From contig JBKBWQ010000001.1 in the NCBI GenBank assembly GCA_046314355.1, positions 1 through 64,000 on the forward strand: a stretch of 64,000 nucleotides of DNA. Direction: 5' to 3'. The stretch is from Candidatus Altimarinota bacterium. Its GTDB lineage: Bacteria > Patescibacteriota > Gracilibacteria > 1-14-2-50-48-13. Below the pieces are notes generated by a model. It was not told the origin of the DNA. It was given only the letters and a program-made list of their open reading frames with translations, and did not search any database. Of the stretch, positions 3,001-42,984 are shown one piece after another. The stretch's first letter is position 1; the number at the start of each line of letters is the position of its first letter. A program made the position numbers and the translations under genes.

Positions 3001-3104
3001 ATTTAGCTTCAGCGAGCGTCATTCCGTTACAAAAAAAGGGAACTATCTCTGGATAAAATAGCCCCCTTAATTACTTATTACTGTCTTACTCAATTACTTG
3101 AGCC

Positions 3105-4460
3105 CTATTTATTCACTCTCTGTAATATAAGTCCAGCGAGTCTGTGTATTTCTTCTGCATTTTTCTTAAAAGAATCTAGTCCTGAGATAGCATCTTTGAA
3201 TGCTACAAATTCGTCTGTTTTTGTAGTGATAGAAGAGATGGATGATTCTGCAAGGTCGAGTGCATCTTCTGCTAGAGCGTATTGTGCGGTCATCTGCTGA
3301 TATTCTGGAGTATCACTGTATGTGCTGAGTGTCTGGAGCAGAAGTTTCTGGTTTACAAAGGATTTTGCTGCAGAGATTTCAAGAGAAGCGTAGAGTTTTA
3401 CAATATCTTTTCTTGCCTGTAGCAGTCCAAAAAGGAATGCTTTTGTCTCTTCGTCGTTCATCGTACTTGTTGCATTAACAAGCTGATTCTTGAGAGAAGC
3501 AAGCTCATTTTTTATAGCAACAATTCTAGTTTGATAATCTCCTGGTATGATTCCAGCAATAGCTACTTTATTATTGAGCAATGTATGAATGACATCTGTC
3601 TCATTTATGAGATTATTAATAATTCCAAGAGTATCCTCTTTTGCAGCGAGCGGATCTCTTATAAGTATAAAGGGCATAACAAGATTTGCCTGTTTTCCGC
3701 TAAGTAGCGGTGAGCTTTCTAAAGATTCAAGGCTGCTTGAAAGGATAATATCTTCCTGCTCAATAGCATTTCCAAGATCAGTGTAGAGAGGGATGTTTTT
3801 CTCTACAAAGCTTCCAAGGTTATATTTTTGGATTACTATAATTCTATAGAGAAGTTCTGCTATCTGAGCACGGGTCGGATATGCGCCTGGTTCATTTAGG
3901 ATCAGCATATTTTTTTCCTTAGCGTACATCATATAGGGAAGGAACCACTCTTTTCCTGTATGCTTAGGAAAATTTACCCGGAGCTGTGCTTCGCTATAGG
4001 TAGTACTTGCGACAAGTCCAAAGGTTCTAAAAGTTATTTTTAGTATCTCTCCAAAGTTAATGAGTTCATTCCCTCGAAATGTTCCATCAGGGTAGCCGGC
4101 AATGATATTTTTATCTTTTGCAAGTGCTACATATTTTGCAAACCAGTCAGTTGCTTTTACGTCAGGAAAACCTGGCTGAGTACTGTCTGGTATTTCTTTG
4201 ATTGATGATTCCATGATCATCTTTAATGCTTCAGCACGGTTGACATAGAGGTCGGGCTGAAAGCTTCCATCTGGAAACCCTCCGATAACTCCTAGTCCTT
4301 TAAGTGTATTGATCGCAACAGAATAGGGATGATCTGTTGCCACATCAGTAAATATCTCTCCAGAGGCAGCATGTGATGTGTGAAGAGTAGTTAGGCTAAG
4401 TATACAGAATAATGCGAGTGAGAGTAGACTCTGTCGTATTCTTGGGGATGAAATATTCAT
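3105..4460 (-). CDS. Secreted S-layer homology (SLH) domain protein
   Basis: Signal peptide; FTDV..HPY..AI..L...GVIGGFPDGSFQPD..VNRAE and FPDV...WFAKYV..A...IIAGYPDGTF SLH repeats; start MNISS chosen. Confidence 0.88.
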   Translation of the reverse strand: MNISSPRIRQSLLSLALFCILSLTTLHTSHAASGEIFTDVATDHPYSVAINTLKGLGVIGGFPDGSFQPDLYVNRAEALKMIMESSIKEIPDSTQPGFPDVKATDWFAKYVALAKDKNIIAGYPDGTFRGNELINFGEILKITFRTFGLVASTTYSEAQLRVNFPKHTGKEWFLPYMMYAKEKNMLILNEPGAYPTRAQIAELLYRIIVIQKYNLGSFVEKNIPLYTDLGNAIEQEDIILSSSLESLESSPLLSGKQANLVMPFILIRDPLAAKEDTLGIINNLINETDVIHTLLNNKVAIAGIIPGDYQTRIVAIKNELASLKNQLVNATSTMNDEETKAFLFGLLQARKDIVKLYASLEISAAKSFVNQKLLLQTLSTYSDTPEYQQMTAQYALAEDALDLAESSISSITTKTDEFVAFKDAISGLDSFKKNAEEIHRLAGLILQRVNK

Positions 4461-10986: not shown

Positions 10987-11766
10987 ATGGAAATCAGCGC
11001 AAAGGCAGTAATGGAATTAAGAGCAAAAACTAACGTAAGTATGATGGCTTGTAAAAAAGCTCTTGTACAGGCAAACGGAGATCAGGACGCAGCTATTGAT
11101 ATCCTTAGAAAATCAGGAGAAGCAAAAGCTCTTTCTAAAGCAGATCGAGAGACACATGAGGGTATTATTACTGCATACATTTCTTCAGATAATAAAAAAG
11201 GAGTACTTACACAGGTACTTTGTGAGACTGACTTCGTAGCACGAAGCGATGACTTCATCAATATGGCTGAGGACATCACAAATCATGCTTCAAAGGACGG
11301 AACTGAGGCTGCTAAGGCAGCAGCTGTTGAAAAACTTCAGCAGGCAGTGATCACTCTTGGAGAAAATATCCAGCTTGAGAATGTGGAAGAGCTTACAGGA
11401 GACTTTGTTGGAATGTATATTCATGCAAATAAGAAAGTAGGAGCAATTGTATCTTTTGAAGGAAATATCTCTGAAGAGGCTGCACGAGACGTAGCTATGC
11501 AGGTTGTTGCATCTCAGCCACAGGTAGTAAATCCTGAGGACATGGATTCATCTCTTGTAGAGAAGGAAGCAGAGATCGCAAAGGAGCAGCTCCGAAAGGA
11601 AGGAAAACCTGAGGCTATGCTTGATAAGATTATTGAAGGAAAACTCAAGAAATTTAGAGAAGAGAACGCACTTCTTACACAGGCATTTATCAAGGATCCA
11701 AGCAAGCAGGTAAAGGATACACTTGGTGGAGCGAAGATTATGAAGTTTGTGAGATTTGCAGTGTAG
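10987..11766 (+). CDS. tsf: Elongation factor Ts
   Basis: VMELRAKT..SMMACKKAL, CETDFVA. Confidence 0.97.
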   Translation: MEISAKAVMELRAKTNVSMMACKKALVQANGDQDAAIDILRKSGEAKALSKADRETHEGIITAYISSDNKKGVLTQVLCETDFVARSDDFINMAEDITNHASKDGTEAAKAAAVEKLQQAVITLGENIQLENVEELTGDFVGMYIHANKKVGAIVSFEGNISEEAARDVAMQVVASQPQVVNPEDMDSSLVEKEAEIAKEQLRKEGKPEAMLDKIIEGKLKKFREENALLTQAFIKDPSKQVKDTLGGAKIMKFVRFAV

Positions 11767-12669: not shown

Positions 12670-12727
12670 ATATTTGGGATTTTTTCAGTCTCATTCTCAA
12701 TGAATATAACTATAATCATCATTTCTC

Positions 12728-12794
12728 CACTTAAGCTAAGAATACTAATCCTCAGCTTACCTCAAGTCGAAACTCGAAAAAATAAAAGAACTCC
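12728..12794 (+). repeat. 67-bp direct repeat, left copy (duplicate of the O-methyltransferase 5' end with ATG changed to AAG)
   Basis: 63/67 identical to 23911-23977. Confidence 0.9.
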
Positions 12795-13012
12795 ACATAT
12801 AGAGTATCTCTACCTTCTTTTAAACCTCTGTCAGCATTTCTTGACAGCACAATAAAAAATAATTTCTTGTTTTGTATGTGCGTGAGAGTATACCTAGACA
12901 TGTTTAATATTTATGATAATACGTTATTAAAATTGAATCTTTAAAAACTACGACAGTCCATCCGGGAGAAAGACAGGAAAGCACAGAAATCTTAAAGAAT
13001 ACTTTTGTTGAA

Positions 13013-13495
13013 GTGTATGCATCTCTTGTCCGAGATCAGGTACATGAGACTGTAAAAGATATCGATGCAGAATTGAATTCGCTCAGAATACAAATGTTTT
13101 CTTTAGCTCAGCAAATAAATATGCTGGATGAGGGGAGAGATTATCTTCTGCAGAGAATTCTTAGGGAGAGATCTCTGGAGAGAGTGATCACGTATGTACA
13201 TAAGGAGTATGCCGATCGTGGTGATGAGCCTGAATTCAAATCTTTCTATATAAATTTTGAACTATATAAAGGCGATGATCATGAGAAAATTATAGGGTTG
13301 CTCGATAGGTCTGATTGCTATGAAGATACTACAATTGTGAGTGAATCTGAGAATGATGCCGTATTTTATGAACTTATTGAAAAATTTACAAAAGAAGGTG
13401 TAGTATTCTACGACGAAGATTTTCAAGTAATAGATGTAAATATGCTGAGAAAGAAGTGGAATGAGAGTGCCGCAGGGGATGGGGATAAATATTAA
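13013..13495 (+). CDS. Hypothetical acidic protein (start uncertain; frame open back to about 12920)
   Basis: 160-aa ORF; no motif recognised. Confidence 0.6.
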   Translation: MYASLVRDQVHETVKDIDAELNSLRIQMFSLAQQINMLDEGRDYLLQRILRERSLERVITYVHKEYADRGDEPEFKSFYINFELYKGDDHEKIIGLLDRSDCYEDTTIVSESENDAVFYELIEKFTKEGVVFYDEDFQVIDVNMLRKKWNESAAGDGDKY

Positions 13496-13659
13496 AGTAA
13501 AAAAGATAGGACAGATAAGTCTGATGCTATTCTCGTACAATGATTCTTGATCAAAATCTTTAAGAGCACATCGTATATTTAATGCGTGGTGCTCTTTTTT
13601 CATAATGATAGGGATAGAAATATGCTATACTATTCTGATATATCAGTTTTTATACATAT

Positions 13660-14505
13660 ATGCTCAACGAATATTCCTTTCTGGAAAAAATGGGACTTCA
13701 TAAAAATGAAGTAAAGTTATACCTACAGGGACTTGCTATAGGTACTCAAGCTACAAGCGTGTTTGCTAAGAAAACCGGTCTTCCTAGGTCCACAACTCAG
13801 CTCTATCTGCAAAATCTCGTGAAGCTTGGATTTATGTCAAAAACACTTCGTGCAGGAGTGCAGTATTTCACACCGTTCCCTCCCTCTGAGATTGAGAACA
13901 TCATAGATAGCAAAAAGGAAGAGTTAAATGTAATAGGAAATACACTGACAAATATGCTACCTCTTCTCAAGAGTCATCAAAATACGGATTATAATATGTC
14001 CCGAATGACTGTATTTGAAGGAAAGCTTGGAGTACAAAAACTCTTTAAAGATATTGTAGCAACAGGTAAAGAAGTTCTCGTATTTAAATCTCCCTTATAT
14101 CATTTTGATAATCCGGCTCTCCGTAAGATGACGGAATCCTTTATGCTCGAATTGAAGAGAAACGAGATTCCAGTGCGAGCCCTTACTCCAAAAGCCAAAA
14201 AACATAGTGCCGAGTATAGTATAAGCCAAGCTGAATATTATGGTTTTCAAAGACGTTTTATAGAGATGGATATCTATGAATTACCATGTCAGATTTTTGC
14301 CTATGGTGATAAATTGGGAATTATTACAAATGATAGTGAAATACAATGTGTAGTGATCCAAGAAAAATTTCTTACGACGCTCATGTATAGACAGTTTGAG
14401 TACCTATGGTCGGCAGCACTGCCATATCATAAAAAAGTACTAAAGGATGATGATCTTGAAAAGCATGAAGAGCCGTACCGAAAATTCATTCATCCTGAAG
14501 AATAG
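13660..14505 (+). CDS. TrmB-family transcriptional regulator
   Basis: LEKMGL..NE.KLYL..L..G...S..AKKTGLPRST...L..L...G wHTH; FEGK.G.. effector-domain start. Confidence 0.85.
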   Translation: MLNEYSFLEKMGLHKNEVKLYLQGLAIGTQATSVFAKKTGLPRSTTQLYLQNLVKLGFMSKTLRAGVQYFTPFPPSEIENIIDSKKEELNVIGNTLTNMLPLLKSHQNTDYNMSRMTVFEGKLGVQKLFKDIVATGKEVLVFKSPLYHFDNPALRKMTESFMLELKRNEIPVRALTPKAKKHSAEYSISQAEYYGFQRRFIEMDIYELPCQIFAYGDKLGIITNDSEIQCVVIQEKFLTTLMYRQFEYLWSAALPYHKKVLKDDDLEKHEEPYRKFIHPEE

Positions 14506-14535
14506 TCTCCTTTCGAAAGTAAGAAGGATACAATC

Positions 14536-17190
14536 CTACCAATAGGGACTTATATCTCCTATGACAAGTCCGCGAGTAAGTGTATCATTTGTAATAGCAT
14601 TTTTCGTATTAAATTTATAATTCTTCATAAGATTTAATACATATGGGAGGGTAGAGGATGAAGGACGGTAGTGACCTGATCCATTGTTGATTTCTACAAG
14701 TTCCCATGCTTTCGGAGTAAGAGTATTATTCCACATCTCCCATGCTTTTATATCGTTAAACTGTTTTTGATGTTTTTTAAATACGAATTCTCCTGCACCA
14801 AAAACATTATGTCCACCGGCAATCACACTATGGGGTGGACGGCGGGTAGCATTTTCACTGAGATTTTCTTCTAATATTTTAATGGTTTCATCCCAGGAGA
14901 CAGTATAGATAAATTTCAGTATATCCTGGTCAATAATCTTTGATATGCGCACTGCTATTTTATTATACTCACTTTTGTTTCCCAGTATTTCAGTAAGAAT
15001 TTCAAGTTTATTCTCGAGATATTCTTTTTCTTCTTCATACTCTCGAGCGAGCGGGAGAGTATGATCCTTCTTTAAAACATCTGATAGGGTTTTATAATTC
15101 TTGATGAGCGTTTGAAGTTTTTGTACTTTTCTCGCATAATTTTCTTTTACTTTTGCAGCTGTCTGCATTTTCTTTGTATAATGCTTTTTCTGTCCGTTAA
15201 AACTTATAGACTTAAGTCCTTCTTTTTCTGCTTCTGAGAGGTACTCTTCATTTATATGCATCCATATTTCTCTCTCAACACGGGAAGTATTTTCACGCAA
15301 AAGATTCAGTATGATTTGATTCATACCTTCCAAGGTGACATGAGACTTTGACACTGTTCTTTTATCTTTCGGATCAAAAATTTCACAAACAATTTTTCTT
15401 TGGCTCTCTCTCTTTTCTAAAATCTCAGGTAATTGCTGAACATATTGAAATTGATTTGAATCATAGTAGGATAATCCTCCAAATTTTATCTCTCGGATTA
15501 CATCCATAATGATATGTTGTATATCCAGAGCAATTCCCTCATCTTTTCCAGTATATCCTTTTTCTTTTCGAGAGGGAAAATGAGATACAGTTTTCATCTT
15601 CTTTTGAAAGTCCTGAATCTTATGTACATAGTCTACGGTTTTCTTAAGTACAGTTTCTAAATCCTTTTCAGGAATAGCATACGCCTCTTTTGCTCTTGTG
15701 AGATGAGGGTTCTGTGTCAGAAAGTTTTGTAGATTTTCAATAGCTTGGCCAATACTCTCTTCAGAAGAATCGGTACTAAATACGTCATGAGCATTATTTA
15801 GATTTATTATCTGATTTGAATGTTTTTTTACGAGCTGCTCCCAGATAGATTTATTCTTCTCTTTCTCATAAATGTTATAGAGATCATTATCTATAATACC
15901 GAGCGAATTATTCAAAAAAGGTTTTACATCAGAAGAGAAATACTCGTCTTTAAAGGAAAAAAGAACTTGTAGGATAGAGCTGTCATAGATTGCTTCCTGA
16001 AGACCTGCAATGACTTTTTTATCTTCTTCCGTATAGAGCATGTCGTCATTATGAAATCGTAGACCTTTTCGATGCTTTAGTGCTTTCTTCAAGATAAATC
16101 GATAATCATTTCCTGAAGGGAGTTTGAGGTTATAGATGATTTCAACATGCGGAAGATGTCCTAGATCACCTATCCCTGAACCCGTAGCCCACTTTAAAAA
16201 ATTCATATCGATAAGACCATTGGCTTCTAAAGTACATCCTGCGACTAAATCATGCTCTACTGCATAATTATATTTGAGAAGCTGATTAAAGTGATGTGGA
16301 TAATGTCCAAGTGTATTGCGACCATAGGTTTTGATTTCATAGATATAGGGCATGGTCTTCTCCGGTTGTTCACGTATCATGGGAACATCAAATCTCACTT
16401 CACTATTTCGTTGTGCCTTATAGCCTCCTTTGAGGAGTTCAGTTACGATAATTAGTGCAAAGGGAGGAGCCTTAAAAACATCTGTAAGAACCTTAGGAGA
16501 TACACCCTCATGAGCAGTCCAGCCCCCATCTGCATAAGAAAAAGCACTCAAAAATCTTGCCTTCTGTCTCTCGGGAAGTTTCTCTGCGAGTTGCTCAGGC
16601 CCGGAGAAAGAACGTAAAAATTCCTCAATACCTTCAAATGTAAATTCTAAAGGAGGAAGGCTCGTCGTTATTTTTTCTAAACCTTGTTCCGTAAGCTTAT
16701 TGATCCGTGTAATTTCAAAGAGTGCACCGTGTAATAGTCCTGATTTATCTAGAGCATTCGAGAGTTTATGTATGGATGATTTTATCTGTTTATAAAATTT
16801 TTCCTGTAAATGAATAGGTAGTTTTGCATAGGCATGTTGGAATTTGTCTGCAAGTTCCTGTTCAATTTCCTCCTCGGATGAGAGAGTATCTTCCAAAAAC
16901 TTTTTGTAATCAACGGGTATTTGATTCTTTGTCTCTCGCAGCTGTGTTAAAAGGATATTTCTATCCTTCTCCAATTCTGCTATTGCACTTGGTTTGGTAC
17001 CTTTTGAATTTTTATTATTTCTATAATATGACTCTATTTCTGAACTTACATTGTAGAGACGGGCTGCAATATCATTGATAATAGTTTCAATATTTTTTTT
17101 ACCATCTACTAAATTTCTATCAACTTCACGTACTAGTTGATCTTCTAAACTCACAGATTCAGATACAATTTGTTTAGTTTGAATTTTCAT
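14536..17190 (-). CDS. Large hypothetical protein with PD-(D/E)xK-like motif and C-terminal HS...AGE...N.SGHY.P domain
   Basis: 884-aa ORF; RFDVP...YEIKTY...NQLLKY; HSVIAGGHNVFGAGEF...INNGSGHYRP. Confidence 0.75.
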   Translation of the reverse strand: MKIQTKQIVSESVSLEDQLVREVDRNLVDGKKNIETIINDIAARLYNVSSEIESYYRNNKNSKGTKPSAIAELEKDRNILLTQLRETKNQIPVDYKKFLEDTLSSEEEIEQELADKFQHAYAKLPIHLQEKFYKQIKSSIHKLSNALDKSGLLHGALFEITRINKLTEQGLEKITTSLPPLEFTFEGIEEFLRSFSGPEQLAEKLPERQKARFLSAFSYADGGWTAHEGVSPKVLTDVFKAPPFALIIVTELLKGGYKAQRNSEVRFDVPMIREQPEKTMPYIYEIKTYGRNTLGHYPHHFNQLLKYNYAVEHDLVAGCTLEANGLIDMNFLKWATGSGIGDLGHLPHVEIIYNLKLPSGNDYRFILKKALKHRKGLRFHNDDMLYTEEDKKVIAGLQEAIYDSSILQVLFSFKDEYFSSDVKPFLNNSLGIIDNDLYNIYEKEKNKSIWEQLVKKHSNQIINLNNAHDVFSTDSSEESIGQAIENLQNFLTQNPHLTRAKEAYAIPEKDLETVLKKTVDYVHKIQDFQKKMKTVSHFPSRKEKGYTGKDEGIALDIQHIIMDVIREIKFGGLSYYDSNQFQYVQQLPEILEKRESQRKIVCEIFDPKDKRTVSKSHVTLEGMNQIILNLLRENTSRVEREIWMHINEEYLSEAEKEGLKSISFNGQKKHYTKKMQTAAKVKENYARKVQKLQTLIKNYKTLSDVLKKDHTLPLAREYEEEKEYLENKLEILTEILGNKSEYNKIAVRISKIIDQDILKFIYTVSWDETIKILEENLSENATRRPPHSVIAGGHNVFGAGEFVFKKHQKQFNDIKAWEMWNNTLTPKAWELVEINNGSGHYRPSSSTLPYVLNLMKNYKFNTKNAITNDTLTRGLVIGDISPYW

Positions 17191-17420
17191 GACTCTCTTA
17201 TATCAATTTACCTAAAAGTTATCACACTATTTATAGTCATAGTATTATATCATGGAGAGAGAAAATTTGATATGTTATGGCTTTGTTTTATGAATATATT
17301 TTCTCTTTAAACTATGATAGTGCCACTAATTAATGCTGTCAGTAGAAATATGTGTTTACAGTAAATAGACTACGTGATTTGACACGTATATCCTGTATAT
17401 TTTTATAATATAATTATTTC

Positions 17421-17609
17421 TGATACTATGCCGTTGTCTTCAATGAAGGGAATAGAAATATTCGCCGTCAGAGAGATTTCAGTTGATCTTTCACAACGAG
17501 GGAAAAATAATCTAAAGCAGAAATGCCCGGACGATTGTGATATATTGAAATGTACCATTGAAGCAATAATTATGTATGTATTTTACCTCTGTGAGGTTAG
17601 GAGAACGAT
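17421..17609 (+). promoter_or_regulatory. Promoter, four-way-junction leader motif (copy A) and SD of cassette 2
   Basis: TG-a-TACTAT extended -10; 32 nt identical to 23036-23067; AGGAG before ATG. Confidence 0.75.
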
Positions 17610-18383
17610 ATGACTCAGAATTTAAATATTACCGCTATTACTGAAGAACTCAAAGTGTATGGTGAGAATCATAAATTAAGAGGACTTGAAGGCCGTATTT
17701 TTAGAGGGCTTGATATTGCAGGAATGCTTGCTGTAGAGACTACAAGGAAACTTGCAGAACAGATAGCAGATAAAATGCAGGTTTCAATGAGTGATCTTGA
17801 AAAAGTTACCAATGAACTTCATGTGGGTACCATTTGGGAATACTCTGATAAATTTCTCAGCAGCAAGGATGCCGCGGTAAATGTATGGATGATCCTTGCC
17901 GAGAGATGTATAGGGCCAAAAATAAAACCTGGCGACCTATCCTCTGAAGAATTTATCGAAGATACAAAGAGAGTTATCACTGAACTCAGTGAAGCAGCAG
18001 AGGATCCGCAGACATTTTTAACTCAAGCTGTTGAAAACCAGGTTATACAGGCTAAAAAAGGCTTTGAGATAGTGGATGGTGTAGCTTTTATAAAGCAGGA
18101 AGGATCCTTCTTACATGCTGCTATTGCTGGTTTGAAATCAGGAATTTCTGAAAGAGTCAGTGATAATGAAACTCTTTTTCACGTGGGAGCTCAGACACTT
18201 GATTTGAATAAGGTTGCGCAGCAGTTTTCTCTTAAAGAAGTCGAAAGAGAAGATCGCGGCAGGGTAGTTACTTTCTATCAGAATAGTGAAGATCAGGATG
18301 TAATCAAAAAATTATATCCGGGTTACGGAATTGTCTTTAACTCTAGGGAAGTCGCTATCGCATTGGCAAAGACTGCATTGTAA
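17610..18383 (+). CDS. Hypothetical protein (257 aa)
   Basis: Long ORF with strong SD; no family recognised. Confidence 0.8.
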   Translation: MTQNLNITAITEELKVYGENHKLRGLEGRIFRGLDIAGMLAVETTRKLAEQIADKMQVSMSDLEKVTNELHVGTIWEYSDKFLSSKDAAVNVWMILAERCIGPKIKPGDLSSEEFIEDTKRVITELSEAAEDPQTFLTQAVENQVIQAKKGFEIVDGVAFIKQEGSFLHAAIAGLKSGISERVSDNETLFHVGAQTLDLNKVAQQFSLKEVEREDRGRVVTFYQNSEDQDVIKKLYPGYGIVFNSREVAIALAKTAL

Positions 18384-18416
18384 ATTATTTTTTCTCGTTG
18401 ATAAGGAGGTGATCAT

Positions 18417-18446
18417 GCCGCTCATAGTATTTGAGCGGCTTTTTTT
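18417..18446 (+). terminator. Intrinsic terminator of cassette 2
   Basis: gccgctca-tagtatt-tgagcggc-ttttttt. Confidence 0.85.
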
Positions 18447-18696
18447 ATACATAGTATATTGAGCAAAGGTATTTTTCTCATAACTTCTCTTTTATTTACG
18501 CTCTTTAATTACTTTATGTTGCCAGAAAAAGTTGGCAGCTCTTTTTAACGTGTATGTACTTACCTTTTTTGCGCTTGACATAATATGCATAAATTATTTT
18601 ACATTGTTATTAATCTAATTATAATCACTCCACTTCTAGTCTATATAGTGCTTAAGAAACATTATAAATAGATATCATATTTAAATAATTACATTT

Positions 18697-20496
18697 ATGT
18701 ATAACAAAAAAACATCGTACGGTTTTTCCGAAAAGGTGTTAGAGAAAAAGATATTTAAAAGAATGTCGCCTCAACTAGAGTCCTTTACGATTCAACATCA
18801 AAAACTAGCTATTAATACTGCTCTGCTCGGAGCGCTTCTTCCATCTGTTCATGTATCCAGAAGTGAGACTGAAAAGAAAAAAATGAATATTGTTATGACA
18901 GCTCTTGCTCCAAGTGTACCGGAAGTCAGACCTCAAAGTCCTGAACAAAATCAGATGTCTGAAGAATTTTCTATATTTCTTTCAGATTTTAATGCAGTAC
19001 TCTCCGCAGATCGAGCAGAACATAAAGGTAAGAATGAATGGTATATACAGATAGAGAATTTGAAAAAATCTGCGTATTACGGAGAGTTTCTAAAAAAGTT
19101 TATAAGAACCGTTGATGAGGTATTGAACTTAGAAAAAAATAAGCACGATACAAAGATCCGAGGTGTACTTTCTTTTATATGTTCTAGGTTTTTGTACACT
19201 GAGAGTACAGGAGATATGCATGATAATACAATCCTCCAGGAACAGATCCTTTTATTTGGAAAGCTGATACAGAATGGATATATATTTGAGCACTCTTTTT
19301 CAGATTTTACACGGACTCTAAATGCAAATATAGAGAGTTTATCGCTCAGGAATATGAATTATATTCTTTATTCTATCGAAAGATCTCCGCAGCGTATACA
19401 ACGTACAAAGACAGGTATCAATGTGATATCAGCTATAGGTCCAAAAATGATAAGTGAGTTTAATAAAATGATGTCTGGAGATCGCCCAAAAGCGTATGAA
19501 TTCACTACAGAGACAAGCCATGATTTGACTCCAGATAATGTTATTCATTTTCTAAAGAATATATTGAAGATTACAACGTATACAAAGAAAGATTTTCACA
19601 CAGCGATGGAATTTCTTGTTCAAAGAAAAGACAGATTAGAGGAAAAAGATCTCAGATCATTATTTTGGATATTAAAAAAAGCAATGGTAAATATCGATCA
19701 GTGGCTTGATCCTTTTATGGGTCAAACTATGGAAGTTATACGGAAACTAAAAGTTTCGGATATGATATCTATGTATTATCAATATGTGATGTCCCATGGA
19801 AACAATCCTCAGATTCTCACTCTATTTCATGAAAAACTGAAGGAAAACAGTACTTCTCTTAAAAGTAATGAGATTAGCATATTATTTTATGTACATGCAT
19901 ATGATAAAAATAAAGATATGGATCTTCAAAAGATACTTCTGCAGAAAATAACTGATAAAAATCTTCACATATCTCCCACTGATATCATTTCCATTGTGAG
20001 AGCATTTGCGATCTTAAATATCTCTGTACCAAATCATATCAACCAGCTCTATCAGACACATATAAGAAGTATGAAAGATACATCTACACATCTTGAGAAG
20101 TCCATTGCAAGTTGGATGCGGACAGAAGTGAGTAAGCTTGGAGTGTTTTCATTTGAAAGCAATAAAATGAATAGCTTTGGTGTAGAAATGGATATTGTCG
20201 TAAGCAATGAATTTAATAAGCTCAATATTGAATGTGATGGAGTGATGTATCACAATACCAATTCAGAGAAACATCTAAAAGATGACCATAGAGATGCTCT
20301 TGTGCGAGAAGCAGGATTTGGAGTAATGAGAGTTACGGACAAGGAATTTTATAGTGATCCTGAACATCTACGACTACGCAGAAGATTACAGCGTTTTCTG
20401 AAATTAAAAGGAATGATAAAACCTACAAAGTATATTCCGTCCGGAAAACATCAACGCTCTATAAAAGAGGAGAATGAGCTCTCTAAAACGGAGTAA
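18697..20496 (+). CDS. Helical-repeat protein with C-terminal RAP/DUF559-like endonuclease domain
   Basis: EMDIVV...LNIECDGVMYH...D..RD..V...GFGVMRV; preceding helical repeat-like segments. Confidence 0.75.
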   Translation: MYNKKTSYGFSEKVLEKKIFKRMSPQLESFTIQHQKLAINTALLGALLPSVHVSRSETEKKKMNIVMTALAPSVPEVRPQSPEQNQMSEEFSIFLSDFNAVLSADRAEHKGKNEWYIQIENLKKSAYYGEFLKKFIRTVDEVLNLEKNKHDTKIRGVLSFICSRFLYTESTGDMHDNTILQEQILLFGKLIQNGYIFEHSFSDFTRTLNANIESLSLRNMNYILYSIERSPQRIQRTKTGINVISAIGPKMISEFNKMMSGDRPKAYEFTTETSHDLTPDNVIHFLKNILKITTYTKKDFHTAMEFLVQRKDRLEEKDLRSLFWILKKAMVNIDQWLDPFMGQTMEVIRKLKVSDMISMYYQYVMSHGNNPQILTLFHEKLKENSTSLKSNEISILFYVHAYDKNKDMDLQKILLQKITDKNLHISPTDIISIVRAFAILNISVPNHINQLYQTHIRSMKDTSTHLEKSIASWMRTEVSKLGVFSFESNKMNSFGVEMDIVVSNEFNKLNIECDGVMYHNTNSEKHLKDDHRDALVREAGFGVMRVTDKEFYSDPEHLRLRRRLQRFLKLKGMIKPTKYIPSGKHQRSIKEENELSKTE

Positions 20497-20507
20497 ATAG
20501 TATAAAT

Positions 20508-20534
20508 AAAAAACCCTCATCCCGAGGGTTTTTT
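20508..20534. terminator. Bidirectional intrinsic terminator
   Basis: aaaaaaccctc-atccc-gagggtttttt between convergent genes. Confidence 0.85.
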
Positions 20535-20540
20535 ATTTAT

Positions 20541-22238
20541 TTACTGAAGAGTAGTCAGGAAATCTTTAAAGATTTTTCTTTTCACTACTGGCTTCAAATC
20601 AATAAAATCTTTGCTGATTGAACTCCTCATTATATCTGCTGTAAGATCTTTCATGATCATATCAATGGCTGGAGATAATTGATCGTTCGTTGGAGTAAAA
20701 TCGATTATCCAGTTATCGTAGAATTTTTTATCATCCGCACGTTCTCCAAAGTAAGAGATGATGATATCGATATATTGAAAAATATTTTTCTGTAAGGCAA
20801 CTGTTTCAGGATAGGTGAGTCCTTCCTGATATATTCCGAAATCCTTAAGTAGATCGCTAAATACTGTAGAGATAATAGTACGAATGTTTTGCGCTTTTAT
20901 GTATGTTTCAATATACGCTTTGTTCTTCATTACTTCATCTATTTTATGCTCTATGACATCTACAGAATTTGATTCATTAATTGCCTGAGTAATGAGTCCA
21001 TGATTTTCTGCAACAAATCGGTAAGGTGTATTTTGAGGATAAATTGTAGAAGATACTTCATTTGCTGTTTTACCTTCTGAATTAATTACGAGCGCTTCAC
21101 GAAGTCTGTATCCTTGAGGAATTTTGTTAAAAGAGCTTGTTCGTGAATTATTTTCTGTCCAGTTTTTTCTTTCATTATTTCCTTTTTTAGAGGAAATGTA
21201 GTTTCTCACATTTCTCTCAACCAATTCTTTTGCTGAATTTGTCTGAGAATTTACTTTTATAATATGAATTAATTCTGAAGGTTTTCTATCATATGTGGTT
21301 TCTACTTCTTCTTTGTTTTCTCTCTCGTGCGTTGGGTTCTGTAGCACTTTAGAAGCAGCTGCCTGTTGAGCAAGTATATTAAAGATTGAATTTACTGCTG
21401 CTATGTAATCACCGTCAGTATTTTTTTCTGTATCAAGCTCAAAGGTATTATCTAGCATATCCCCATTTTCATTGATTCGTATAACTAGTCCTTTAGATAA
21501 TGTATTTCTGAGATTTACATCAGTAAGTTTGCTCATCTTCGTAATCTGATCATAAGTAAGCAAAGTTGATTTCCAAATATTTTCACCTTTTGGAAGATGT
21601 TCTTTCGCTATGTTTGCGTAGAAATAGTATTCGTTATTAATCTCTACAGGTCCTGGCAACTCTACTAGTTTATATTCATTTTTAAGAAGAGCAGAATCTA
21701 TCCAGGATTTCCCATTTTGCATTGTAAAATCTACAGATCGTTTGATGGAATGCACCTGGTCTTTTGCATATTTTTTTAAATACTGAGCAAGGATATAATC
21801 CACTAAGGACTCTTTGTTTAAGTTACTCGCATTCTCTTCAGAGAGATAACCCTTGTTTACAAGAAGGTTTTTAAAGGCATTCGTAAGTGAACTGTCCATC
21901 ACATCTTCGTCAGAATGGCTGCCTGCTATCTTATCTTTCAATCCTTTTTGCGTAGGACGTAGAACTATGGTGTCTGCAATCTTATCTTTTATAAGAATGT
22001 AGTTTGTCTTGGCTTTGCTATTATGAAAAATATACCCCTTGAGAAGACGTGCCTCATCCTCATCTCGTAATAAGTGATCAAAATTTTTTCCAAGATCGGA
22101 ATTGATAAAATAATTTTTTCGGAGAGCTCTTATCTTATCCTGGGAAAAAAGTGAAGTAAGTTCTGCAGAGAGCGTTTCATAATTATTATTGTATGTTCGC
22201 TTCTCGGGAAACTTAGGTGAATAGTGTGTCGAGATCAT
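20541..22238 (-). CDS. Hypothetical protein (565 aa)
   Basis: Long ORF; no motif recognised. Confidence 0.75.
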   Translation of the reverse strand: MISTHYSPKFPEKRTYNNNYETLSAELTSLFSQDKIRALRKNYFINSDLGKNFDHLLRDEDEARLLKGYIFHNSKAKTNYILIKDKIADTIVLRPTQKGLKDKIAGSHSDEDVMDSSLTNAFKNLLVNKGYLSEENASNLNKESLVDYILAQYLKKYAKDQVHSIKRSVDFTMQNGKSWIDSALLKNEYKLVELPGPVEINNEYYFYANIAKEHLPKGENIWKSTLLTYDQITKMSKLTDVNLRNTLSKGLVIRINENGDMLDNTFELDTEKNTDGDYIAAVNSIFNILAQQAAASKVLQNPTHERENKEEVETTYDRKPSELIHIIKVNSQTNSAKELVERNVRNYISSKKGNNERKNWTENNSRTSSFNKIPQGYRLREALVINSEGKTANEVSSTIYPQNTPYRFVAENHGLITQAINESNSVDVIEHKIDEVMKNKAYIETYIKAQNIRTIISTVFSDLLKDFGIYQEGLTYPETVALQKNIFQYIDIIISYFGERADDKKFYDNWIIDFTPTNDQLSPAIDMIMKDLTADIMRSSISKDFIDLKPVVKRKIFKDFLTTLQ

Positions 22239-22332
22239 AGAAAAGATTAATATGTTAATATTATAATAACATAAAAATATAGAAGTCGCAATTAGCGTCT
22301 TCTATATGAATTTAAGCAACTTGATTCTCAGA

Positions 22333-22851
22333 TTATAAATATTTGAGAATCATATGCATTATGTTTGTATCTAGGCTTTCTCCTTTCAAGAAACCTTGAA
22401 TTATTGCGGAATGTTCATTCCAGATATTATCTTTCTGTTGTTTATCCGAAGCTGTCCTGAGACCAATGTAGAACGCTTTTGCAAGCTTCTCGCTGTACTC
22501 TGGATAACTTGCAGATAAATAAGCAAAAAGATTCTTCAACATGAGATCTATACTCGTCTCTGGTATAGTAATCTTAAAATCTATACCTTTGTAGTCTTGA
22601 GAGAGTATGCGCGCCTGAAGTAGAGACCATAGCGAACTCAGCAGTGTATAGTTACTTTGATGAGTCGACTGAGGAAAATACTTTTCTACTCTCCAGTCTA
22701 ATAGTTTCACAATAGATCCAAATTGACCGGTTTTAATCCTATTGAGCTCCTTATACCATATTTTTGGAATAGGTACTTCTAGCTTTGCTATAAGATTCAA
22801 TATTACTAAAACTGTATATACAGTTTGATAATAGAGAATATCTTTTTTCAC
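22333..22851 (-). CDS. Hypothetical protein (GTG start after AAGGAGGT)
   Basis: Strong SD aaggaggt-aaaaat-GTG at 22851; terminator-like hairpin at 22277-22306. Confidence 0.65.
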   Translation of the reverse strand: MKKDILYYQTVYTVLVILNLIAKLEVPIPKIWYKELNRIKTGQFGSIVKLLDWRVEKYFPQSTHQSNYTLLSSLWSLLQARILSQDYKGIDFKITIPETSIDLMLKNLFAYLSASYPEYSEKLAKAFYIGLRTASDKQQKDNIWNEHSAIIQGFLKGESLDTNIMHMILKYL

Positions 22852-23001
22852 ATTTTTACCTCCTTTTTGTATACTTAGGCATATTACAATTTTTTTTAAA
22901 AATAGCAATAATATATTAAGTTGTTAACATTTTCTGTCACTAAGTGTAAATTTTGTTTTCTATAAACAAAAATAGCGAATTTACAAATACATGTTATATT
23001 T

Positions 23002-23173
23002 TTGAGTATATTTTATATTTCTGATAGTATACCGCTGTCTTCAATGAAGGGAATAGAAATATTCGCCTCACGGAGAATGCAATGATCTTTTACAGTAAGT
23101 GAGAAATGTAAATTTAAAAGAATTTATTAATTGTTATTTTTGCTTAAAGTAAGCAAAGAAAAGGAGGCTTCAT
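23002..23173 (+). promoter_or_regulatory. Promoter, four-way-junction leader motif (copy B) and SD of cassette 3
   Basis: TTGAGT-N17-TAGTAT with TG extension; shared 32-nt core; AAGGAGG before ATG. Confidence 0.78.
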
Positions 23174-23785
23174 ATGGCAGGAATGGGAGTATCGTATAGC
23201 GTAAGTACCGATAGAGAACTCTCTGTAGATGAAAGAGTTACTACTCAGACTTTGCTCAACAGAAGGTCACAGATTCATCAAAGACTTCAAGTACTCAGAG
23301 AGTTAGATATGAGTATTGAATTTAAGAATCAGTGTCCAAAGTGTGCTTATCAGGTAACTCTGGAAGAAGTGTTAGAAGGTTTTGATCTAAGTAAGACCTA
23401 TGATACTAGAACCGAGTGTCCTAAATGTAGAGAAAAGTTTCAGCCTGAAATTGAATTTAATCATTTGGCTCATAACGGATCTTATACGTTCTATTGTGAA
23501 ACCCAGGCTCTACAAGCCCTAGAGGATGAATATGAAAATATGAATCCTATGGAAATTTTAGAGGATAATCCGGGACTCTTTATCTCTAGCTTAGTACATT
23601 TTGGTGCGATACCGAATGCATTTAAGATGATTGACACTGAGTATAACTGGAAATTTAAATACAATAAATGGAAAGAAAGAGCCATTCCGTACTTAAATAT
23701 CATACCTGTAGGAGTACTTGCCGAAGTTTTAGGTGTAAGTAACTCTAGTCTCTATAAGTTAAAGAAATTGCACGCAAAAGAATAG
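23174..23785 (+). CDS. Hypothetical zinc-ribbon protein with putative C-terminal HTH
   Basis: CPKC...CPKC; VGVLAEVLGVSNSSLYKL HTH-like tail. Confidence 0.75.
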   Translation: MAGMGVSYSVSTDRELSVDERVTTQTLLNRRSQIHQRLQVLRELDMSIEFKNQCPKCAYQVTLEEVLEGFDLSKTYDTRTECPKCREKFQPEIEFNHLAHNGSYTFYCETQALQALEDEYENMNPMEILEDNPGLFISSLVHFGAIPNAFKMIDTEYNWKFKYNKWKERAIPYLNIIPVGVLAEVLGVSNSSLYKLKKLHAKE

Positions 23786-23811
23786 TTTCTCACTCTGAAA
23801 AATAAATCAGT

Positions 23812-23840
23812 ACCACTGCATATGTATGCGGTGGTTTTTT
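23812..23840 (+). terminator. Intrinsic terminator of cassette 3
   Basis: accactgcata-tg-tatgcggtggt-ttttt. Confidence 0.85.
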
Positions 23841-23910
23841 ATTATGTAAAAATACTATCTTTTGATATGATCCAGATCTTTCTCAATTATCTCGACTTAT
23901 TTCCACTCTT

Positions 23911-23977
23911 CACTTAAGCTAAGAACACTAATCATCAGCTTTCCTCATGTCGAAACTCGAAAAAATAAAAGAACTCC
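23911..23977 (+). repeat. 67-bp direct repeat, right (intact) copy
   Basis: Matches 12728-12794; contains the start codon of the O-methyltransferase. Confidence 0.9.
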
Positions 23978-24513
23978 GTCTCGCCTCTATCGCCCGCAAA
24001 GTCCCGAATGTGACTGAAGAGAATGGGAAATTTCTCTATATGATGACACGTTCTCTGAAGCCGAAAAAGATTCTGGAGATTGGGACAGCAAACGGAATCT
24101 CTACACTTTTTTTTGCAGCGGCTCTTGAACAGAACGGAGAAGGGAAGATATATAGTATTGAGCCACAGGACAAGGATCACTTGGAGGCAAAAGGATATAT
24201 GAAGGAGCTAGATGTTGAAAAATATACTGAACTACATCACGGCAGAGTGCAGGATGTGCTGCCGGAGATAGATGAGGAGTTTGATCTGGTGTTTATAGAT
24301 GGTATGAAAAAGGAGTATGCTGAATACTTTCTTATTTCCTTATGGAGGACTCATCAGGATACTGTCTTTCTCTTTGATGATGTGATCAAATTCCGTCATA
24401 AAATGGATGCACTTTTTGAAGTACTTGAGGATAGAAAAGATGATTTTGAATGGACTATACTGCCTATTGATCCGGATGACGGTGTACTTATGCTTCATAA
24501 GAAAGCAGTATGA
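23947..24513 (+). CDS. Class I SAM-dependent O-methyltransferase (YrrM/TrmR-like)
   Basis: ILEIGTANGIS, FDLVFIDG motifs. Confidence 0.9.
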   Translation: MSKLEKIKELRLASIARKVPNVTEENGKFLYMMTRSLKPKKILEIGTANGISTLFFAAALEQNGEGKIYSIEPQDKDHLEAKGYMKELDVEKYTELHHGRVQDVLPEIDEEFDLVFIDGMKKEYAEYFLISLWRTHQDTVFLFDDVIKFRHKMDALFEVLEDRKDDFEWTILPIDPDDGVLMLHKKAV

Positions 24514-34710: not shown

Positions 34711-34714
34711 AGAT

Positions 34715-35001
34715 TTTTCTTCACCTTGCCGGTGGGGCGTCACTTTTGTGACCAAAAGGGAACCAAAAGTCTTGGGAAAGGAGAAAAGCGTCTGGCAGAG
34801 GGGGTGTTTTCTAAAAGTAATCAGACGCTTCTCCTCCCCCAAACCCCCTGGGAAGGTGTGGTCTACACGTGGCTCATGGGCTGCACGGCTCTTTGAGCGA
34901 TGTACCTGCGGTACATGTCATAGGCTCAAGGGGGGGGAGAGTCTATGAGCTATCCCCCTGAGAAGGGGGATACAGGGGGTTTGAGCCCGAGAACTCTCAT
35001 C
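34715..35001. repeat. Mosaic palindromic intergenic repeat, copy 3
   Basis: Aligns with copies at 1-352 and 2671-3000. Confidence 0.9.
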
Positions 35002-36433: not shown

Positions 36434-36487
36434 AGCTAGCAGTCTCATCGCGTTGACGCGACTTACTTACTCAATTACTTGAGCCAT

Positions 36488-39400
36488 ATGTACAAACAAC
36501 CAAATCCTAAGCAAAATTTTCCGTCGCTTGAAGAGGAAATCATCAAATTCTGGGAAAAGGAAAATATTTTTCAAAAATCCGTAAGTCAGCGTGATGCTGC
36601 AAATGAATATACATTTTATGACGGACCTCCCTTTGCGACGGGACTTCCTCACTATGGTCACATATTGGCGAGTACGATCAAAGATATGGTACCTCGTTAT
36701 TGGACGATGCGCGGAAAAAGAGTAGAAAGAAGATGGGGATGGGACTGTCATGGTCTTCCTGTGGAGTATGAAAAGGAAAAGGAATTAGGTATCAGCTCTA
36801 AAAAAGGTATCGAAGAATTCGGTATAGGAAACTTCAATGAAGCCTGCAGATCTACGGTGCTCCGCTATGCTCATGATTGGAAAAAATATGTTTCTCGTCT
36901 CGGAAGATGGGTAGATATGGACAATGATTACCGTACAATGGAGCCATGGTTTATGGAATCACTTTGGTGGGTATTTAAGGAATTATCAAAGAAAGATCTT
37001 GTCTACGAAGGTGAGAAAGTACTTCCATATTGTATACGATGTGCTACGGTGCTTTCCAACTTTGAAGCAACTCAGGGGTATGTAGATCGTCAGGACTCTT
37101 CTGTAACTGTAAAATTCCGCGCACGAGGTTTCCAGTTTACTGATGATACACCTATCTATTTCCTCGCCTGGACAACTACTCCTTGGACATTACCAAGCAA
37201 CCTAGCTCTCGTAGTAGGTCCAGATGTTACATATTCTTTGATAAAGGATCATGCTTCAGAGGAACTCTATATTCTTGGTGAAGAAGCTCTTGCTAGATAT
37301 TACAAAGTAAAGGACGGAGAAGAAGTGCCGTATACTGTGCTGAACACTTATAAAGGAAGTGAGCTTGAGGGTATACGGTATGAGCCGATATTTGATTACT
37401 TTAAAGAAAAAGAAGCTGAGGGTGCCTTCAAAGTATTTACAGCAGATTATGTAACTACAACAGATGGTACTGGTATAGTTCATCAGGCGCCATATGGTGA
37501 AGATGATCACAGACTTTTGACTGAAAAAGGAATAGGGATCGTACATGCGGTAGATGATTCTGGTATTTTCAAAGATGAAGTGACTGACTATAAAGGTCAG
37601 ACTATTTTTGAATCTAACAAGAAGATCCTCTCAGATCTGAAGGAAAAGGGAAAAGTGATCAGAATAGATACTACTATGCATAGTTATCCTCATTGCTGGA
37701 GATGTGATTCTCCGCTTATGTATATGCCTATTTCTACGTGGTTTGTAAAAACTACGCAGATCAAAGAAGACCTTTTGAGTAATAATAAAAAGATTACCTG
37801 GGTACCTTCAAATATCAAAGAAGGTCGTTTTGGAAAATGGCTTGAAAATGTCCGTGACTGGGCTGTATCTCGAAACCGTTATTGGGGTACACCTCTTCCT
37901 GTATGGAAATGTACAGACTGCAAACATGTGAAAGTGCTTGGAAGTGTAGAGGAACTCTTTAAGTCTGCACCTGGAAAGATTACTAAGCTCACTCTTGTAC
38001 GTCACGGTGAAGGGACTCACAATACTGCTCATGTGTGGAGCAGCAGTCTTGATGATACGTATTCGCTTACTGAAAAAGGAAAAGCTTCAGTGAAAGAAAC
38101 GGCAAGAAAATATCTTAAGCAGGCAACAACTATGTATGTTTCACCTCTTCACCGCACTCAGGAAACTGCTCAAGTCATCGTAGAAAATATTGATACATCT
38201 CCGAGGGTAACGATAGATGAGCGTTTGAGAGAAATGAGCTTTGGAGTATGGGAAGATAAAGATACAAGAGATCAGGATATACAAAAGGATCTGCAGGAAT
38301 GGAAAAATCATAAGCAGGATGGTAGCAGTTGGGATATCCCGAGATGCAGCGGTGCAGAATCCTATGCTGATCTTGAAAAAAGAGTTACATCCTTTTTAGA
38401 AGAAATTCTTGAAAAGCATAAAGGTGAAAGTGTAACTATTGTCTCTCATGGAGCTGTACTGCGGGTACTTACAAAACTAGTGAAAAGTCTTACTTCCCGT
38501 GAAGGTTTGTTAAAACTCAAAACACAGCCAACTGCCTCTGCTCAGAATTTATATATAGACACAACTACTGGAAAAGAATTTGATCTTCATAAACATTTTG
38601 TAGATGATATAGAAATCCCCTGTGATATGTGCGGATCACCTGCAAAGAGAATCCCCGAGGTCTTTGACTGCTGGTTTGAATCAGGATCTATGCCGTATGC
38701 TCAGAATCATTTTCCGTTTGAAAAAATGGAATACACTAAGAATAATTTCCCTGCGGATTTTATTGCTGAAGGACAAGATCAGACAAGAGGATGGTTTTAT
38801 ACACTACATGTCCTTGCTACCGCACTCTCAGATGGTAAGTCAGGTCTTGGGATGAGTAACCCTGCGTTCCAGAATGTAATCGTAAATGGAATCGTGCTCG
38901 CTGAGGATGGAAAAAAGATGTCAAAACGTCTCAAGAACTATCCTGATCCGATGCATATTTTTGAAACATACGGAGCGGATGCTCTTCGTTTCTATATGAT
39001 GAACTCTCCTGTAGTACAGGCTCAGGATCTCAGATTTTCTGAAAAGGGTGTAGGTGAGGTGGTAAAGACAGTGCTTCTTCCTCTTTGGAATACATATTCT
39101 TTCTTTGTAACCTATGCATCTCTTGATTCATGGACAGCAGAGACGCATGTCCAAAAGGGTGATTTGCATAAGTTGGATAGATGGATACTCTCTGAGCTCA
39201 ATACTATGATCAAAAACTATAACGCGCGAATGGAAGCGTATGATCTGAAGGGAGCAACAGATCTCATAACTGATTTCCTTGATAACCTTACAAACTGGTA
39301 TATCCGAAGATCTCGAAGACGTTTCTGGAAAAGCGAAAATGACAATGACAAATACGGTGCATATGCGACTCTTCACCAAGTGATTATAAAAGTGTGTCAG

Positions 39401-42489: not shown

Positions 42490-42767
42490 TTCTTTTGTAA
42501 CCAAAAGAAACAAAAGTTTTGGGGGAGGAGAAAAGCGTCTAGCAGGATTCCGTGAGATCTACATGTGATCAGACGCTTCTCCTACCCCAAACCCCCAGGG
42601 ACGGTGAGGTCTAGATAAAGACTCGAGTTACTAGTTACTAGTGACTGTCACTAGCCACTAGTAACTATGCACCCTGACATGTAGCTGAGATACATGTCAG
42701 GGCTCGGGGAAGGCCTATGAGTGCCTATCCCCCTGAGAAGGGGGACCCAGGGGGGTTGAGCCCGAGA
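42490..42767. repeat. Mosaic palindromic intergenic repeat, copy 4 (diverged)
   Basis: Same stems with substituted loop and expanded actagt heptamer tract. Confidence 0.85.
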
Positions 42768-42984
42768 AAATATGAACTGCGGGATCCAAACACAAAAGTT
42801 TCGGAAATGCTTTCACTTAAGCCAAAAATAATAAAGAGTAATTTTATTGCGTCGCATTATGGTACTGCCCTTATTTCTGTCAATTCCTTTTCCCCGCATT
42901 TTCCATATATATCTGTAAAATAAATTGAGTTTCCTGTAAAAAGCAGGTACTATCTTTACCGTTCTATTCATATAACCCGATTGC

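Follow-up and report, generated by a model that had tools for sequence, protein, structure and literature searches.

Within the 64,000-nucleotide (nt) stretch of a Candidatus Altimarinota bacterium analysed here (positions 1 to 64,000 of contig JBKBWQ010000001.1, assembly GCA_046314355.1, referred to below as the window), two single-gene units, cassette 2 and cassette 3, each carry in their leader a segment that is complementary to the short region between their own stop codon and terminator. The two segments lie at homologous positions behind a promoter and leader module that the cassettes share, they differ in sequence, and each fits the 3′ region of its own gene better than that of the other. 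It is probable that this complementarity is real and specific to each cassette. That it gives rise in both messages to a long-range helix between the 5′ untranslated region (UTR) and the 3′ UTR, of a kind already known, is a more tentative proposal; such a helix would belong to a known but rare kind of bacterial control, and its support here comes from sequence statistics. An earlier note on the window had proposed selection on such pairing in cassette 3, an interpretation which as a whole is partly supported.

The gene of cassette 3 is an open reading frame (ORF) of 203 amino acids (aa) at 23174-23785, the product of which belongs to a family, as yet uncharacterised, that has a Zn-ribbon and a helical domain at its C-terminus (all features of the two cassettes lie on the + strand unless stated). 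It is preceded by an intergenic region of 265 nt, with the upstream neighbour (22333-22908) on the opposite strand. The leader arm, arm A (about 23082-23108), consists of a shared box, TGATCTTTTACA, and then a part specific to the cassette, and the 3′ arm, arm B (23785-23809), has as its first base the G that ends the TAG stop codon (23783-23785), so that the claim in the earlier note that it starts at the stop codon is borne out. RNAduplex joins 23083-23107 to 23785-23809 by 21 pairs, of which one is G-U, at -17.0 kcal/mol. The coordinates and letters given previously for both arms match the sequence, and the core of 10 contiguous pairs is indeed found, 23098-23107 pairing with 23794-23785 through nine Watson-Crick pairs and one U-G. 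The 3′ UTR before the terminator is 26 nt long, and the intrinsic terminator that follows (23812-23835 with its T run, to 23841) has a stem of 10 pairs.

Cassette 2 has the same architecture with a different sequence. Its gene (17610-18383) encodes a protein of 257 aa without known family, the single homologue of which shares 43% identity (P0152, labelled at its source 'predicted nucleic acid-binding protein'), and none of the 400 other genomes sampled from the phylum carries a match to it. Arm A (17481-17512) consists of the shared box TGATCTTTCACA and then a variable part of its own, whilst arm B (18383-18419) contains AAGGAGGTGATC followed by ATG; together 17481-17512 and 18383-18419 form 28 pairs, four of them G-U, at -20.9 kcal/mol in RNAduplex. 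A terminator scan places the terminator at 18417-18439, and the upstream neighbour is a divergent gene on the minus strand (14536-17190). Each unit is taken to be monocistronic, because both have divergent upstream neighbours and a terminator after arm B.

The module that the two cassettes have in common is a promoter and leader motif of 114 nt, at 22954-23067 in cassette 3 and at 17353-17466 in cassette 2, with 73% identity between the copies, and the 1.69-Mb genome contains no third one. Within it lies an identical core of 32 nt (23036-23067 in cassette 3), for which two exact matches were found in the window against none expected, and which contains the palindrome CTTCAaTGAAG and a hairpin, GGGAAUA-GAAA-UAUUCGCC (23049-23067), that is present in the minimum-energy folds of both leaders. 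A comparison of this core with the boxA and boxB elements of nut-type antitermination would be no more than a resemblance, and the idea was dropped. A second shared box, TGATCTTTnACA, follows 16-18 nt after the motif and in both cassettes makes up the outer portion of arm A, with the cassette-specific inner part directly 3′ of it. As the variable part follows directly and at the same offset from TGATCTTTnACA, the two arms are at homologous positions, and the claim that the segment occupies the same place relative to the shared motif in both cassettes therefore holds. Since the motif, of which the genome has no further copy, defines the two leaders by itself, the pair was not chosen for its pairing. 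Weaker pieces of the module also occur in front of two other genes nearby, with ATTTATGATAATAC and TTGAATCTTTAAAAAC 5′ of the gene at 13013-13495 (in the region of 12909-12948) and GGGATAGAAATATGC and TATTCTGATATATCAG 5′ of a TrmB-like gene at 13660-14505 (in the region of 13618-13655).

The specificity of each leader for its own 3′ region was assessed in a three-by-three matrix, which included a third, weaker leader and in which fixed leader arms were set against matched 30-nt 3′ segments. The cognate pairs reach -19.7 (cassette 2) and -17.0 kcal/mol (cassette 3), the two cross pairs -7.8 and -9.8, and pairs that involve the third leader -3.5 to -8.1. When only the variable parts of the arms are used, the cognate pairs remain at -11.8 and -12.6 and the cross pairs at -5.5 and -6.4. 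It had been predicted in the earlier note that cross pairs would be much weaker than cognate ones, and in this comparison they do lie at background. The background itself can be taken from the 1113 ORFs of the genome, where a leader arm of 31-35 nt set against the 30 nt after each stop codon gives -7.1 ± 2.7 kcal/mol. For each cassette 2 of the 1113 downstream regions attain the observed energy, the cognate region being one of the two, and in the reverse test the counts are 1/1113 and 0/1113. Mononucleotide shuffles of the 3′ arm attained the observed value in 0 of 5000 cases for cassette 2 and in 8 of 5000 for cassette 3.

These figures bear on the strongest of the rival explanations, in which chance complementarity sits on top of a duplicated promoter or operator module, the shared motif being a DNA site for a regulator encoded nearby and the matches between leader and 3′ UTR having no function. 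The fixed-arm counts and the shuffles count against it, as does the location of the arm at the homologous place in the only two such leaders of the genome. A rough combination of a free-position chance of about 0.03-0.08 in one cassette with a homologous fixed-position chance of about 0.002 in the other gives about 1e-4, a meaningful product, though post hoc and drawn from two cassettes. In favour of this explanation, the pairing was noticed by eye and post hoc, and the shared motif contains two perfect short palindromes, of which CTTCAaTGAAG with its 1-nt spacer is more suggestive of a protein site than of an RNA hairpin. Furthermore a protein with a TrmB-like helix-turn-helix (HTH) is encoded close by (13660-14505). 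Taken together, chance pairing over an operator seems unlikely, though it is the most serious competitor of the UTR helix.

A number of further results weigh against the UTR helix, and several of them speak for chance. When the position in the leader is left free (leaders of 150-200 nt), 34 and 96 of the 1113 genes do as well as the two cassettes, and in a wider free-position scan 126 and 227 of 1538 do so, which are ordinary ranks. If a longer 3′ segment of cassette 2 is offered, the cross pair between leader 3 and UTR 2 reaches -13.7 to -17.6 kcal/mol, because the shared box pairs with GGAGGTGATCA in the longer segment. The possible third cassette, with the gene at 13013-13495, has no closing helix, its value being -8.1 kcal/mol. 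The comparative sample is moreover two cassettes in one genome. The leader motif was not found in any of the three other genomes of the same family, and among 401 genomes of the class 33 besides its own gave only matches of 17-36 nt (E 1e-4 to 0.05), of which the 15 inspected had no flanks like those of the leader. Viral contigs contained no match to a 22-base degenerate pattern of the leader, and metagenome contigs contained one exact 23-mer match (L049), the flanks of which are unlike the leader and which is taken as chance. As no relatives of the leader were found, covariation across genomes is not countable, and no conservation outside this genome could be shown in support of pairing over chance.

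None of six homologue loci of the 203-aa protein (L010-L015) has a cognate pairing better than all the non-cognate ones. In these six full-length loci the gene is followed by a terminator-like hairpin. Because none of the six shows the pairing, it is a property of the leader module of these two cassettes and not of the gene family. Two of them, from two other small genomes, do have repeated upstream motifs of 38-44 nt around the 203-aa homologue, at 1329-1359/2074-2104 and 2197-2240/3310-3353 in L010 (G227:C12) and at 867-904, 1407-1444 and 2240-2277 in L012 (G182:C1), and a neighbouring ORF in L010 repeats an N-terminal coding stretch, MSMGMSM. Shared leader or promoter modules around this family may thus be recurrent. 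With regard to selection on pairing, then, the specificity of the cognate pairs stands, but the case is weaker than had been claimed, as there are only two cassettes in one genome.

Part of the high free-position background has a separate source. Where 5′ and 3′ flanks match best across the genome, as at dnaJ, lexA and others, the match comes from intergenic repeats like repetitive extragenic palindromes (REP-like repeats) and is not gene-specific closure. Such repeats inflate the free-position background and are a separate phenomenon. Units such as GAGCCCAATTAYT and AGTAAGT/ACTTACT flank many genes, with complementarity down to -37.7 kcal/mol. Examples are found in the window at 3080-3111 and 36461-36492, and elsewhere on genome contig C1 at 1083700-1083810 with 1084990-1085090 (dnaJ), at 853500-854420 (lexA) and at 452220-452800. 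A different low-complexity pair brackets the gene at 452371-452727 of C1, the product of which would seem to be a four-helix-bundle '23S rRNA intervening sequence protein'.

Folding of the whole messages adds little to the case for a UTR helix. In the full-length mRNAs of both cassettes the helix is kept in the minimum-energy and centroid folds, with pair probabilities of 0.79-0.98 for arm A of cassette 3 and 0.8-1.0 for the CAACGAG core of cassette 2, and in local folds the arms are only about half paired. As a control, 50 ORFs were picked at random from the 446 of 150-260 aa, and each was folded with the same flanks. In cassette 3, 22 leader bases pair with the 3′ flank, a number equalled or exceeded by six of the 50, one of them cassette 2. 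Because these controls close as well, the full-length fold has been downgraded as evidence, and the result is a further point in favour of chance. The ends of RNA molecules are described as generally lying near each other (PMC3017586), which fits such common predicted closure.

A helix within the mRNA also presupposes that both arms are transcribed, and on the correct strand. Upstream of the core the boxes conserved by eye are TTGACA in cassette 2 with TTTACA in cassette 3, and a TG-extended -10 of TACTAT/TAGTAT. In cassette 3 two candidate promoters can be drawn from these, one with TTTACA (22980-22985, aligned with the TTGACA of cassette 2) and GAGTAT (23004-23009), the other with TTGAGT (23002-23007), a spacer of 17 nt and TAGTAT (23025-23030) preceded by TG. 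A consensus scan lists neither by-eye candidate, and within arm A of cassette 2 it reports TTGATC-17-AATAAT (17483-17511). If that promoter were used, arm A would be missing from the message of cassette 2. The antisense duplexes are as stable as the sense duplexes, at -19.7 against -20.9 kcal/mol for cassette 2 and -16.9 against -17.0 for cassette 3, so that the pairing fits either strand, and a feature of the DNA as well as one of the RNA. G-U pairs had been considered as proof of the RNA strand and were dropped, as the antisense energies are equal. Among sequencing runs one DNA run, labelled hot springs metagenome, contains the region and may be where the window came from, and no RNA run is listed.

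The equal pairing of both strands suits an explanation at the level of DNA, in which the arms are imperfect inverted repeats that arose from, or serve, recombination, either by capture of cassettes behind a common leader or by inversion of the ORF. In its favour each pair of arms encloses a single ORF, in both cassettes the arms have TGAT at their beginning and ATCA at their end, and the surrounding island, bounded by direct repeats, looks mobile. Yet none of the eight ORFs of that island has a recombinase, integrase or transposase domain in Pfam, PADLOC, PHROGs or NCBIfam. Contrary to what is seen at transposon ends, the arms match worst at the outside and best at the inside; the two 3′ arms have only TGAT in common, and an inversion would put no sizeable ORF behind the promoter. 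In the sole run that contains the region the Logan contigs fall into four pieces, interrupted at the 32-nt repeat; their depth is even (19.8, 21 and 22), and they show no joints, loose ends or alternative orientation, although contigs drop rare variants. A recombination origin or function for the arms is accordingly regarded as very improbable. An integron gene cassette was also considered and rejected, as there is no integrase or recombinase among the eight ORFs and the repeats bracket the ORF instead of following it.

The UTR helix remains the preferred reading, held with less than even confidence, and the following sequence of events can be proposed for it. Cassettes 2 and 3 would be single-gene transcription units with paralogous promoter and leader modules, and the leader segment after the shared module would pair with the short 3′ UTR, between stop codon and terminator, in a helix of 21-28 bp. 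Both arms would have to lie on one transcript and the helix to form in the cell. It might then set the fate of the mRNA by masking or exposing cleavage sites for RNase Y, J or III, as in hbs of Bacillus subtilis. A ribosome terminating at the stop codon, where arm B starts, would be expected to disrupt the inner pairs of the helix. If so, pairing would be confined to messages that are not being translated, and translation would be tied to mRNA decay. Genes for RNase III, RNase Y and RNase J are present, and Hfq was not found in the genome, which is rated 98% complete; this set of decay enzymes is like that of B. subtilis. A direct block of translation is not visible in the predicted arrangement. 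In cassette 3 a small hairpin, TTGCTTA-aag-TAAGCAA, an inverted repeat seen in the local fold, is followed by the Shine-Dalgarno sequence (SD) AAAGGAGG (23140-23167 together, SD at 23160-23167), and arm A (23082-23108) makes no contact with this SD, arm A lying 66-91 nt upstream of the start codon in cassette 3 and 98-129 nt upstream in cassette 2. Pairing between 3′ UTR and SD, of the type known from icaR, is therefore not what is found here, and this too counts against the UTR helix.

One may go further and imagine a modular system, in which one leader module is reused ahead of various cargo genes and every message has as its 'address' a closing helix of its own at the stop codon, which terminating ribosomes open and untranslated messages close, so that termination is coupled to protection of the mRNA or to its cutting by RNase III or RNase Y. 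This extended scheme is improbable. If it were true, or indeed if the helix alone were, the paralogous pair of leaders, with differing closing sequences that each match their own 3′ UTR, would be a natural compensatory experiment.

Two other readings place the same pairing in a different process. The 3′ RNA may act in trans by binding the leader of its own mRNA and so feeding back, in the manner of OppZ and CarZ. Arm B stands directly before a terminator hairpin and U run, which is the layout of a small RNA with its seed region at the 5′ end, and autoregulatory small RNAs derived from 3′ UTRs are known (PMC7398697). Set against this, the genome is without a detected Hfq, the target lies far upstream of the SD, and the sequence is without any feature that would separate cis from trans, which leaves action in trans highly doubtful. 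Alternatively the duplex of 21-28 bp may be a processing stalk, cut by RNase III so that the mature mRNA loses the shared 5′ module and the terminator, as in the stalks of ribosomal RNA (rRNA). Its length is near two helical turns, RNase III is encoded, and icaR is reported to show that duplexes between 5′ and 3′ UTR can be RNase III substrates (PMC3868564). Against this, the duplex is interrupted by numerous bulges and internal loops, particularly in cassette 3, and this reading, to which we attach very little probability, is in any case a variant of the UTR helix and not a true alternative.

The protein encoded by cassette 3 had been described as an orphan with a Zn-ribbon and an HTH. The first of these labels has to be corrected, as an exhaustive search with HMMER returns 211 cluster representatives (E <= 0.001), of which 142 are at E <= 1e-10, nearly all of about 200 aa and aligning from end to end with 25-38% identity. 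A word-indexed search had returned only the 203-aa protein itself. Among the 401 genomes sampled from the phylum nine have a match, its own included, and these genomes are of 0.6-2 Mb. The Zn-ribbon is supported by four Cys (C54, C57, C82 and C85) that are invariant in an alignment of 55 sequences together with C108, Q111, S138 and G144. Matches to zinc-finger families are weak and lie below the cut-offs. The HTH is plausible only, judged from the three C-terminal helices predicted by AlphaFold2 (mean pLDDT 90.7, pTM 0.81); no HTH family matched, and Foldseek gave no fold match at E <= 0.001 against PDB and BFVD. A PDB sequence search and the ESM Atlas gave no significant match for the protein, and none of the sources examined gives the family a name. 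The supposed orphan is thus one of many uncharacterised proteins of about 200 aa that form a widespread family, with a confidently predicted fold that matches no solved structure.

Both cassettes lie within an island of 11.1 kb, at about 12795-23906, between direct repeats of 71 nt that are 93% identical, both on the + strand. The left repeat (12724-12794) corresponds, in decayed form, to the 5′ end of an O-methyltransferase gene, and the right repeat (23907-23977) overlaps the start of that gene (23947-24513). The GC content of the interior is 0.32-0.36, against about 0.40 outside. In all three same-family genomes a homologue of 10987-11766 is followed by homologues of the methyltransferase and of a carboxypeptidase, without the 11-kb island, the spacing being 39 and about 110 nt in two of them and about 1.1 kb in the third. 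As the flanking genes neighbour each other in 3/3 of these genomes the island is an insertion, and it is considered to be horizontally acquired, foreign DNA. Among its proteins the TrmB-like HTH (13660-14505) and the DUF559/REase_MTES_1575 tail of 18697-20496 are recognised, and the rest are sub-threshold. The product of 18697-20496 is a large protein of which this Vsr-like endonuclease region forms the C-terminus, and that of 20541-22238, also large, has a weak NucC-like match (PADLOC, E 5e-4); the two may be defence-related cargo.

Upstream of 18697-20496 a separate peculiarity is seen in the 3′ UTR of cassette 2 (18403-18462). Here AAGGAGGTGATC, one of only three occurrences in the genome, is the full complement of the 3′ tail of 16S rRNA, and the ATG after it opens an ORF of 15 codons that reads through the terminator hairpin. 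The arrangement may be chance, or it may be a ribosome-loading site tied to read-through into 18697-20496. Rfam gave no match at gathering score in the whole window, with only sub-threshold noise over cassettes 2 and 3.

A further element of the window is a GC-rich dispersed repeat of about 290 nt in this AT-rich genome, found at 62-351, 2732-2969, 34714-35000 and 42492-42768. Across the genome blastn finds 24 matching pieces, about 17-20 copies, and contig C1 carries one at either end. Folded as RNA, the repeat has a z-score of -5.0, with none of 200 shuffles folding as well, and it has no Rfam match. Its neighbours are housekeeping genes (pyruvate kinase, SLH protein, MgsA and SecA), and it may be a structured RNA of a new kind or a miniature mobile element.

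Few interactions between 5′ and 3′ UTR are, to our knowledge, known in bacterial mRNAs, with hbs and icaR as the textbook cases, and we know of almost no RNA regulation in this lineage of small-genome bacteria. If the UTR helix is correct it would provide an example from a small-genome bacterium of hot springs, where post-transcriptional control is almost unexplored. The sequences on both sides of ribosomal RNAs pair in processing stalks that are cut by RNase III, and in the cassettes the enclosed RNA is instead an mRNA and the predicted stalk short and imperfect. In the fold-back of hok/sok-type systems (tac/fbi) a full-length type I toxin mRNA is locked in a closed state by pairing between its 5′ and 3′ ends. 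The ORFs of 203 and 257 aa differ from these, as they are not small toxins, and there is neither an antisense RNA to be seen nor any sign of toxicity. A type I toxin fold-back was thus rejected, on account of the length of the ORFs and the lack of a small RNA match in Rfam.

OppZ and CarZ reportedly need Hfq and RNase E. Autoregulation by these small RNAs, which are derived from 3′ UTRs, is likened to the present case by a 3′-terminal piece that ends in a terminator and is complementary to its own mRNA; they act in trans (PMC7398697), and Hfq was not found here. In icaR of Staphylococcus aureus the pairing of the 3′ UTR with the SD is an RNase III substrate and blocks the initiation of translation (PMC3868564). 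The cassettes are alike in that their duplex is a possible RNase III substrate and the product a putative regulator, and they differ in that the icaR pairing covers the SD, which is free here, and in that the 3′ UTR of icaR exceeds 100 nt, against 26-33 nt before the terminator here. The closest precedent is the hbs mRNA of B. subtilis, in which a 14-bp interaction between 5′ and 3′ UTR is described as modulating cleavage by RNase Y (PMC5737220). The likeness extends to a monocistronic message, a structured 5′ UTR, a small protein, here predicted to bind nucleic acid, and a host with RNase Y and RNase J. In contrast to hbs, the present helix is a prediction from sequence, its 3′ arm abuts the stop codon, and there are two paralogous leaders, each with its own closing sequence.

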